Source: a virus
Lineage: Duplodnaviria; Heunggongvirae; Uroviricota; Caudoviricetes
Strand: one strand, 5' to 3'
DNA length: 12,663 nucleotides
Virus record (IMG/VR): IMGVR_UViG_2740892369_000024
Span: 1 to 12,663 of that record
Positions within the stretch are counted from its first letter, which is position 1. Every line of letters begins with the position of its first letter. A program made the position numbers and the translations under genes. This document shows positions 7,178 through 7,966 of this stretch, one piece after another. The notes beneath the pieces were generated by a model, which was not told the DNA's origin, did no database searches, and saw nothing but the letters and a program-made list of their open reading frames with translations.

Positions 7178-7240
7178 TAAACACCATATGGAATATCCGT
7201 CACCATCTCAGGAAAAAAGTGTTGTAAAATGCGTGGCCTA

Positions 7241-7463
7241 GTTTTGGGGAGACGTTTTGGAGAGATTTTGGAGAAAGGAAAAAATTGAATAAATTCAAAA
7301 TCCTGAAAGTGTCCCGCCTTATGAATAAGAAGGTGAACGAATTAGATGATTAATCCTTTATATTCAATTTATTAGGTTTGTTTTTGAGTGATTTTGTCGT
7401 TTAAGGTAACGGCGTTATAGATCCTATCAAAATCAATCAATTGCATTCTGGTTTTGGAGAAAG
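7241..7463. repeat. Direct repeats of TTTTGGAGA(R) downstream of int, candidate Int arm-type binding sites, with one IHF consensus match
   Basis: TTTTGGGGAG at 7242-7251, TTTTGGAGAG at 7255-7264, TTTTGGAGAA at 7266-7275 and TTTTGGAGAA at 7452-7461. An IHF consensus match (WATCAANNNNTTR) is at 7431-7443 (AATCAATCAATTG). The region has no convincing ORF and is AT-rich. Confidence 0.4.
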
Positions 7464-7519
7464 ATTTTTCGAGAGCTTCGGTCTTTAACTAAAACTGATT
7501 GCGTATAATCGCAATACCC

Positions 7520-7549
7520 CCTCCCCGACTATCTGAATGGTCGGGGAGG
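7520..7549. repeat. Perfect 10-bp inverted repeat CCTCCCCGAC-N10-GTCGGGGAGG, candidate att core or structured RNA element
   Basis: Arms at 7520-7529 and 7540-7549 with spacer TATCTGAATG. A TATAAT hexamer sits at 7504-7509 just upstream. It lies about 60 bp beyond the last arm-type repeat. Confidence 0.35.
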
Positions 7550-7966
7550 CACTTCAAGCACAAAATATCATCCCTGCTCCGTTGATTACTCTACAGGTGA
7601 AGTCGGCCACTCAATATCAGGTGCTGCTGATGTATCAACACGATTCAACAACACCCGATACTTTTTCCAGGCTTCCCGCAATGAAGTCTCTTCCTCAATT
7701 ACGATCTCCAGATCTGCAGCATCCTGAAGTGGGGCGCACCACGCAAACATCACAAAATATTGTCGTTGTGATGGACCTGTGCAATAGTGAATCACGCTAC
7801 GTTTCTGTGTACAACGTACTGTAGTTTTCTTTACGATTTATAGCTGTACTGGTGAGCCATGAGTAATCTGAATCCATGCATGGCGTGTGGTGCCTGTTGT
7901 GCATTTTTCTGCGTCTCTTTTACTGGTCCGAAGCCGATGATGCTGAAGCAGTCCTCTCCTCTAGCC

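Follow-up and report, generated by a model that had tools for sequence, protein, structure and literature searches.

The locus examined here raises the question of what the non-coding DNA behind an integrase gene represents: the border between a prophage and the host chromosome, or an attachment site with phage DNA on either side. With it comes the question of whether the neighbouring effector genes belong to the phage. The window, i.e. the whole stretch of 12,663 nucleotides that was analysed, is 100% identical to a part of the genome of Escherichia coli 97-3250 (NZ_CP027599.1), in which window position 7100 corresponds to record position 3,296,469. The source record annotates in this order a LexA-family repressor, ydfB/ydfC, DicF/dicB, an exonuclease, an excisionase and the integrase. 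On the 3' side of the att region follow a tfa pseudogene, a ykgJ fragment, espM2, nleG-family genes and espW, with an IS600 element located just past the end of the window. The stretch 7178-7585 lacks an annotated CDS in the source record. In a search of the whole window against Rfam at the gathering threshold, the sole match was a full-length DicF sRNA gene (RF00039, 76.7 bits) at 2593-2644 on the plus strand, upstream of dicB in the early region of the prophage. A previous sequence-only reading had interpreted the non-coding stretch as the integrase-proximal junction of the dicB prophage with the chromosome, with a perfect inverted repeat as core, the prophage ending at about 7550 and the effector locus lying outside of it. 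The direct repeats, the IHF match and the inverted repeat on which it was built were all found in place by direct reading, and its statement that no tRNA gene is evident agrees with a scan of the window that detected neither tRNA nor tmRNA genes.

The integrase carries the lambda Arm-DNA-binding domain (PF09003, E = 3.8e-21) and the domain PF00589 (E = 1.5e-18). It aligns over its full length with lambda Int at 35% identity, including the motifs TGQR, KTG, HExRS, GHK and Y. The excisionase scored 23.2 bits against the Pfam family Exc (PF07825; cut-off 23), and the open reading frames of int and xis are both intact. An arm-binding, catalytic tyrosine integrase and an adjoining excisionase gene, as expected next to a lambda-type attP, are hence both present. 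Copies of Int with 99.7% identity adjoin potC in strain KY208 and in record 813R8, and more distant relatives adjoin potC in Citrobacter sp. Cu233 (77% identity) and Candidatus Pantoea alvi (68%).

The att region was compared with 5,426 complete E. coli genomes. Positions 7100-7338, comprising the end of int and the left flank, recur beside potC, and positions 7322-7735 recur directly after potB in many of the genomes. In a four-way alignment of the window, the int-potC junction of KY208, the potB-phage junction of ES4 and the empty potB-potC site of K-12, the only segment common to attP, attB, attL and attR was the 14-bp sequence TGAATAAGAAGGTG, on either side of which the flanks switch in attL and attR. 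In a tabulation of 12 sites (attP and attB represented twice each, along with five attL-type and four attR-type sites, among them those of Citrobacter and Pantoea, with one site in two roles), the switch of homology fell at the same position. The left arm of the window is shared with the int-potC junctions and the right arm with the potB-phage junctions; both flanks of the core are phage arms and neither matches potB or potC. Since a phage arm lies on each side of the core, the window holds an intact attP rather than a chromosomal junction. The four-way comparison, with its core and both arms, thus upholds the view that the region after int is the att region of this integrase. The proposal of an attL or attR was abandoned for want of a host flank, the empty site being located elsewhere in the same genome. 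The recommended alignment to an empty site did reveal such a site and a shared core; the core is, however, the 14-bp segment and not the inverted repeat at 7520-7549, which begins about 200 bp downstream. The target had been expected to be protein-coding or intergenic, and the first of these holds: the core corresponds to the 3' end of potB beside the start of potC. Taken together, these alignments make it very probable that 7216-7475 represents a complete and unrecombined attP, belonging to a lambdoid phage with an integrase that inserts at the enterobacterial potB/potC junction. The features of the locus are compiled in Table 1.

Table 1 Coordinates of the features of the att region and its surroundings in the window
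Feature	Position	Strand	Basis or remark
xis, excisionase	5821-6090	+	Overlaps start of int; source annotation and Pfam
int, lambda-type tyrosine integrase, 372 aa, potB/potC target	6059-7177	+	Pfam domains, lambda alignment
Variable spacer between int stop codon and conserved arm	7178-7215	.	Not conserved in Citrobacter or Pantoea
Predicted int-proximal attP arm	7216-7321	+	Near-invariant across E. coli, Citrobacter and Pantoea, always beside potC
Putative arm-type repeats, proximal arm	7241-7252, 7254-7265, 7265-7276	+	Families D1/D2
Conserved A/T-rich palindrome	7279-7301	+	Within proximal arm
Candidate core-type site CGCCTTA	7315-7321	+	Within proximal arm
Common core (14 bp)	7322-7335	+	TGAATAAGAAGGTG; sole segment common to attP, attB, attL and attR
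Replacement potB 3' end, phage-borne (…LNKKVNELDD*)	7322-7353	+	Translated potB-phage junction
Conserved core-adjacent island	7328-7367	+	Alignment of three arm types
Predicted distal attP arm	7336-7475	+	Conserved islands across three diverged arm types; conserved block at 7336-7367
IHF-like site, one mismatch	7362-7374	+	IHF scan
Degenerate repeats	7380-7402	+	Distal arm
IHF consensus	7431-7443	+	Exact; AATCAATCAATTG matches WATCAANNNNTTR
Putative arm-type repeat, distal	7451-7462	+	TTTTGGAGAA at 7452-7461
Degenerate neighbour of distal repeat	7463-7474	+	Distal arm
tfa 3'-flank module with GC-rich hairpin (7520-7549), outside att	7476-7585	.	Common to phage cdtI
tfa remnant (C-terminal 49 aa)	7586-7735	-	Annotated pseudogene; Caudo_TAP PF02413, E = 3.1e-19, profile 84-130 of 131
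ykgJ-family gene fragment (fossil)	7859-7968	+	Annotated frameshifted partial; 88-92% match to chromosomal ykgJ
espM2, first T3SS effector cargo gene	7967-8557	-	Annotation; followed by nleG-family genes and espW

Position 8 of the core is polymorphic, being either G or A. G is found in every attP and attL site, in which the phage distal arm forms the right flank, and sites with potC as the right flank carry A or G depending on the host. In 97-3250, the vacant attB carries A, in spite of sharing its potB flank with O26 attL sites that carry G. Position 8 thus goes with the right flank, so that strand exchange would take place to the left of it, within TGAATAA. The 7-bp overlap is thus probably TGAATAA at 7322-7328, as judged from one polymorphic position in a dozen sites. 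The surrounding sequence CCTTA-TGAATAA-GAAGG is symmetric about 7325, and the inverted pair CCTTA / GAAGG flanks the heptamer as expected for core-type Int sites.

The position of the core has consequences for both target genes. In translation, the potB-phage junction ends with …RLLNKKVNELDD, where the empty site reads …NKKVELE, and lysogens still have an intact PotB in their annotation. On the potC side of the core are the start codon of potC and the GGTGGA upstream of it. Integration separates the stop codon of potB from the start codon of potC, which overlap at the empty site (ATGA), the phage supplying the end of potB (window positions 7322-7353; positions 5223-5250 of a compared locus). 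After integration, potC-potD lie directly downstream of int on the same strand. A promoter scan found no sigma-70-like promoter in 7000-8000 and no promoter-like site was detected in the arm; hence, the expression of potC-potD in lysogens may depend on read-through from the phage.

The int-proximal arm is nearly invariant in the relatives from about 7216 up to the core, and over window positions 7100-7338 the identity to the int-potC junction of KY208 is 97.5%. Its repeats read TTTTGGGGA at 7242-7250 and TTTTGGAGA at 7255-7263 and 7266-7274, the latter recurring at 7452-7460 in the distal arm. Exact matches to TTTTGGRGA occur four times in the 12.7-kb window, all on the plus strand and all within 7242-7460; 0.46 are expected, and four were reached in none of 200 shuffles. 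The three tandem repeats are invariant in the relatives from Citrobacter (Int 77%) and Pantoea (Int 68%). At the sequence level, repeats distinct from the core are thus present on both arms. Their conservation across genera, their occurrence on both arms and their lambda-like spacing support the earlier assignment as putative arm-type sites. The spacer between int and this arm, i.e. the non-conserved 40 bp behind the int stop codon, holds in UTME-9 an insertion of 0.9 kb with two ORFs (DUF2335 and a hypothetical protein; locus positions 7097-7990). It has the look of a moron slot whose use does not disturb att.

For the distal arm, three types with about 68% identity were aligned, namely that of the window, that upstream of espK and that of strain A41. 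Besides the core-adjacent island, all three retain 7430-7450 (the IHF site with its flank), TTTTGGAGAA and TTTTC at 7467-7471; past approximately 7475, no conservation was found among them. Homology to an internal cargo region of phage cdtI starts exactly at 7476 and continues through the hairpin into the tfa remnant. With conservation of the proximal arm setting in at about 7216, the predicted functional attP measures about 260 bp (7216-7475), corresponding to -112 to +147 from the core centre. The distal arm of the window is 100% identical to the attL arms of other O26 strains. The IHF match by itself does not exceed chance (two in the window versus 1.1 expected; two or more in 61 of 200 shuffles), but it is preserved in arms that have otherwise diverged to about 68% identity; the match noted earlier is thus a conserved element and a candidate IHF site. 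A second, diverged (~68%) potB-type distal arm is located upstream of espK in 97-3250 (locus positions 38656-38799), with the IHF site and TTTTGGAGAA retained; where the core would be, it borders on a tfa remnant. In strain 2012C-4227 (locus positions 4001-4300), this second type of distal arm is joined to a proximal arm and core at which an IS3 element has taken the place of int.

If the site works like that of lambda, the N-terminal domain of Int would bind the TTTTGGAGA arm repeats, of which a tandem array of three lies towards int at 52-88 bp from the core centre and one or two lie on the far side at 122-146 bp. IHF would introduce bends at 7431-7443 and probably also at another place close to the core, and the catalytic domains would exchange strands within the TGAATAA of the 14-bp core shared with the potB 3' end. 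Integration would then provide potB with a substitute C-terminus and leave the start of potC intact. With both arms present, the copy in the window corresponds to the junction of a circular phage or of a tandem prophage with phage DNA on either side: the early region dicB-exo-xis-int on one side of attP, and the tail-end cargo of tfa remnant, espM2, nleG and espW on the other.

The likeness to the attP of lambda comprises the arm-binding N-terminal domain of Int (35% identity), the overlap of xis with int, a core of some 14-15 bp common to attB, candidate IHF sites that fit the consensus and a total length of about 260 bp. The Int sites annotated in the lambda record have a comparable spacing: three arm sites follow each other in tandem on the arm next to int, and the other arm has at least one site some 120-150 bp out. 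The consensus of the lambda arm-type sites is (C/A)AGTCACTAT, from which the TTTTGGAGA of the window differs. The distance from the int stop codon to the core is also larger, ~150 bp in the window versus ~80 bp in lambda. In contrast to lambda, which targets the intergenic site between gal and bio, the phage of the window targets the 3' end of potB at the start of potC and supplies a replacement for the gene end. The site adds a new and well-delimited example to the lambda-type att family and is unusual only in lying away from its vacant attB.

The perfect 10-bp inverted repeat CCTCCCCGAC / GTCGGGGAGG at 7520-7529 / 7540-7549 extends to 13 pairs, one of them G-T, with a loop of 4 nt. As RNA, it folds with -24.2 kcal/mol on the plus strand (z = -5.6) and -21.8 kcal/mol on the minus strand (z = -3.7). 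This thermodynamic strength, together with its place after the arm repeats and the IHF site, speaks for the model in which it is the core of an attL or attR at which the dicB prophage ends near 7550 and beyond which a non-phage effector locus begins. Practically no credence can be given to that model, which the comparative alignments ruled out. The breakpoints in the 12 att sites lie at 7322-7335, other versions of the distal arm are devoid of the inverted repeat, and in phage cdtI the module 7476-7585 that contains it resides among cargo genes, far from any att site. Moreover, the 99.9% identity of 7322-10760 to the tail end of the potB prophages in other strains passes uninterrupted across 7550, and in FWSEC0001 and UTME-9 tail fibre genes follow the effectors. 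The inverted repeat is, on this comparative evidence, part of the tfa 3'-flank module and not of att.

The hairpin matches no known RNA family (a permissive Rfam search of 7150-7650 gave no match), and it is identical in every copy compared, so that no covariation signal can be obtained. Its position invites comparison with the sib/tI element of lambda, since both are stable hairpins placed past the outer arm site, across att from int. A retroregulator of this kind would be transcribed past int only if attP is intact, and would destabilize or terminate the int mRNA. The hairpin occupies 192-220 nt, counted from the core centre away from int, and thus follows closely upon the last arm site; the lambda tI/sib folds at 146-195 nt, in the corresponding place. 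The int-sense RNA is also the more stable strand, its extra pair being G-U. Unlike sib/tI, however, the hairpin is not followed by a U-tract on the plus strand, is not kept in other distal-arm types used with the same core, and travels with the 3' end of tfa into phage cdtI, where int is not nearby. A U-tract hairpin linked to the att/int module, as in sib/tI-type retroregulators, is thus not what is found; the likeness is positional only and a retroregulator appears improbable. The linkage to the 3' end of tfa instead favours, at the level of sequence, a role at the 3' end of a tail-fibre transcript. As a terminator or stabilizer on the minus strand, kept along with the tfa remnant, the hairpin would act on the tail-fibre/tfa transcript, an explanation that we regard as tenable while falling somewhat short of likely. 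The hairpin begins 37 nt past the tfa stop codon, is inherited with the tfa 3' end as a single module, and is followed on the minus strand by a small second hairpin and a T-rich tail. Against termination speak the lack of a U-tract directly after the main stem, the disruption of the small second hairpin in ES4 and cdtI, and the absence of the flank from many tfa copies, whose matches start at 7586-7605. Only two terminator-like matches were found in 7000-8000, one within int (7062-7046) and a weak one on the minus strand (7515-7498) that is broken in other copies. A possible side effect of the hairpin would be to stop read-through from potAB in lysogens.

The effector genes can be assigned by means of two other strains. 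In FWSEC0001 (O26:H11), potB is followed by the core, the distal arm with the tfa remnant, ykgJ', espM2, nleG, espW, two further nleG genes, the tail fibre gene, lom, J and, further on, the portal gene. UTME-9 has the same order from the distal arm and espM2 to the tail fibre after potB, and, about 53 kb on, the early region of the window (same protein accessions) ending in int-proximal arm, core, distal arm and espM2. In both strains, the cargo block is thus enclosed by the distal arm on one side and the tail fibre genes on the other, and the effector locus belongs to the phage, in disagreement with its former placement outside the prophage. Likewise, the phage does not end at about 7550: phage DNA was found to run through this position into the effector genes, the very observation that had been named beforehand as incompatible with a boundary there. 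According to these gene orders, the effector locus is cargo at the tail end and the dicB operon the other end of the same phage type, the two being neighbours across attP. The tfa 3' piece on the minus strand and the ykgJ 5' piece on the plus strand are found again, in unchanged order, in FWSEC0001 and UTME-9, and hence are stable parts of the cargo region. Over positions 7322-10760, the window shares 99.9% identity with the Stx1a_EH2115 prophage record at its potB-side end. The left flank of that record matched none of the loci compared, and the integrase there is only 38% identical to that of the window.

On the chromosome of UTME-9, the phage is present at potB with an attL, an attP and a third place. 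UTME-9 is a tandem lysogen at potB/potC, with attP between two prophages. Effector cargo at the tail-fibre/att end of lambdoid prophages of EHEC is referred to as exchangeable effector loci, and espM2, the nleG-family genes and espW similarly fill the interval from the att arm to the tail fibre genes in FWSEC0001 and UTME-9. In the window, the cargo is seen across an intact attP, beside int; the cargo itself is nothing unusual.

The gene potC is a published prophage insertion site and a hotspot of rearrangement mediated by prophages (PMC8065619, PMC10982417, PMC10925052), and is listed among the insertion sites of Stx phages (PMC8065619, PMC10982417). Prophages at potC are also breakpoints of large inversions and deletions and form compound prophages (PMC10925052). 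In a further study, potCB figures only as a differentially expressed gene in lambda lysogens (PMC2147009). In the literature library that was searched, nothing specific was found on a described potB/potC attP or a dissection of the site. The present analysis provides a base-level map for lambdoid phages that integrate at potB/potC, with core, probable overlap, proposed arm consensus TTTTGGAGA, IHF site and outer limits. Among these phages are Stx-converting and T3SS-effector-carrying prophages of EHEC and EPEC. The map also corrects a boundary, the effector locus being assigned to the phage, and leaves the general knowledge of how such att sites work unchanged.

The location of the attP in 97-3250 deserves separate consideration. 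A 291-bp attP query matched a single place in this genome. The prophage to the left of the int of the window starts with ydfJ'-ydfK-pinQ-tfaQ, which is the Qin site of K-12. A native Int/att of the Qin prophage was considered and rejected, since the right end of K-12 Qin has neither DNA nor protein similarity and IntQ is unrelated; the Int/attP module is therefore foreign to the ydfJ site. In the same genome, potB and potC are contiguous at 3,549,998-3,550,001, and the attB is thus vacant, 253 kb from attP. Only 11 of the 1,633 genomes that carry either arm have the intact attP junction, and nine genomes keep attP along with a vacant attB, the vacancy having been checked in 97-3250 only. An intact attP arises only from the joining of attL and attR, by circularization or intrachromosomal excision, or from tandem integration. 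The window thus resembles tandem and compound prophages, including the compound potC prophages of O157:H7 (PMC10925052), in which an unrecombined attP lies between two prophage genomes. Unlike the tandem prophages of UTME-9 at the cognate site, however, the attP of 97-3250 is situated in the Qin/ydfJ cluster while its cognate attB is vacant, from which we infer that a phage segment was moved there by recombination that did not use attP. The right-hand prophage, from the effectors to a second integrase (int2), is 99.9% identical to the potB-yccA prophage of FWSEC0001 except for a deletion of tail genes at the IS600. A 3.5-kb dicB-exo block with 94% identity between the two prophages could serve homologous recombination. 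An intact attP away from its empty attB hence marks a displaced prophage segment and helps to reconstruct how effector cargo shifts between prophage clusters of O26 strains.

The coexistence of attP and a vacant attB could also mean that the copy is inactive. The site would then be an attP by descent but a dead fossil, with Int or Xis unexpressed or defective, that marks a past rearrangement. We judge this unlikely, albeit far from negligible. Both sites persist side by side in 97-3250, the neighbouring prophage has lost its tail genes at the IS600, and the cores have the same orientation at a distance of 253 kb, so that recombining the two would remove a large piece of the chromosome and presumably be selected against. 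On the other hand, the int and xis reading frames are intact, Int is 99.7% identical to the copies at bona fide junctions, and the arms closely match attL arms of other O26 strains (100% for the distal arm) and the int-potC junction of KY208 (97.5% for the proximal arm). Another possibility, that the stranded but sequence-perfect attP, the intact int and xis and the vacant attB constitute a latent site-specific system, still able to shift either the effector-bearing part of the prophage or a large block of the chromosome from the ydfJ cluster to potB/potC or back, seems quite improbable; if true, it would help to explain why the same prophage is placed differently in the O26 strains 97-3250 and FWSEC0001. 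The preferred reading is that of a complete attP, relocated with its phage segment.

Several observations concern the larger surroundings of these prophages. The prophage of FWSEC0001 (record positions 3,619,397-3,672,115) has potB at its tail end and yccA at the end with the different integrase, int2. The K-12 gene order proceeds in the same direction on both sides of this prophage, with about 150 kb (potC to the yccA region) missing between them, which implies a prophage-mediated translocation or an assembly problem. During the localization of yccA in 97-3250, an Stx1a prophage was encountered near 3.79-3.81 Mb (record positions 3,790,000-3,812,000). Lastly, in a comparison of 97-3250 with K-12 around Qin, the ppsA-aroD region is reversed (record 2.70 Mb), and the Qin cluster appears to have the K-12 direction (record 3.25 Mb). 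The spacing between the Qin cluster and potB is ~210 kb in 97-3250 versus ~450 kb. These changes in order suggest large inversions bounded by prophages.
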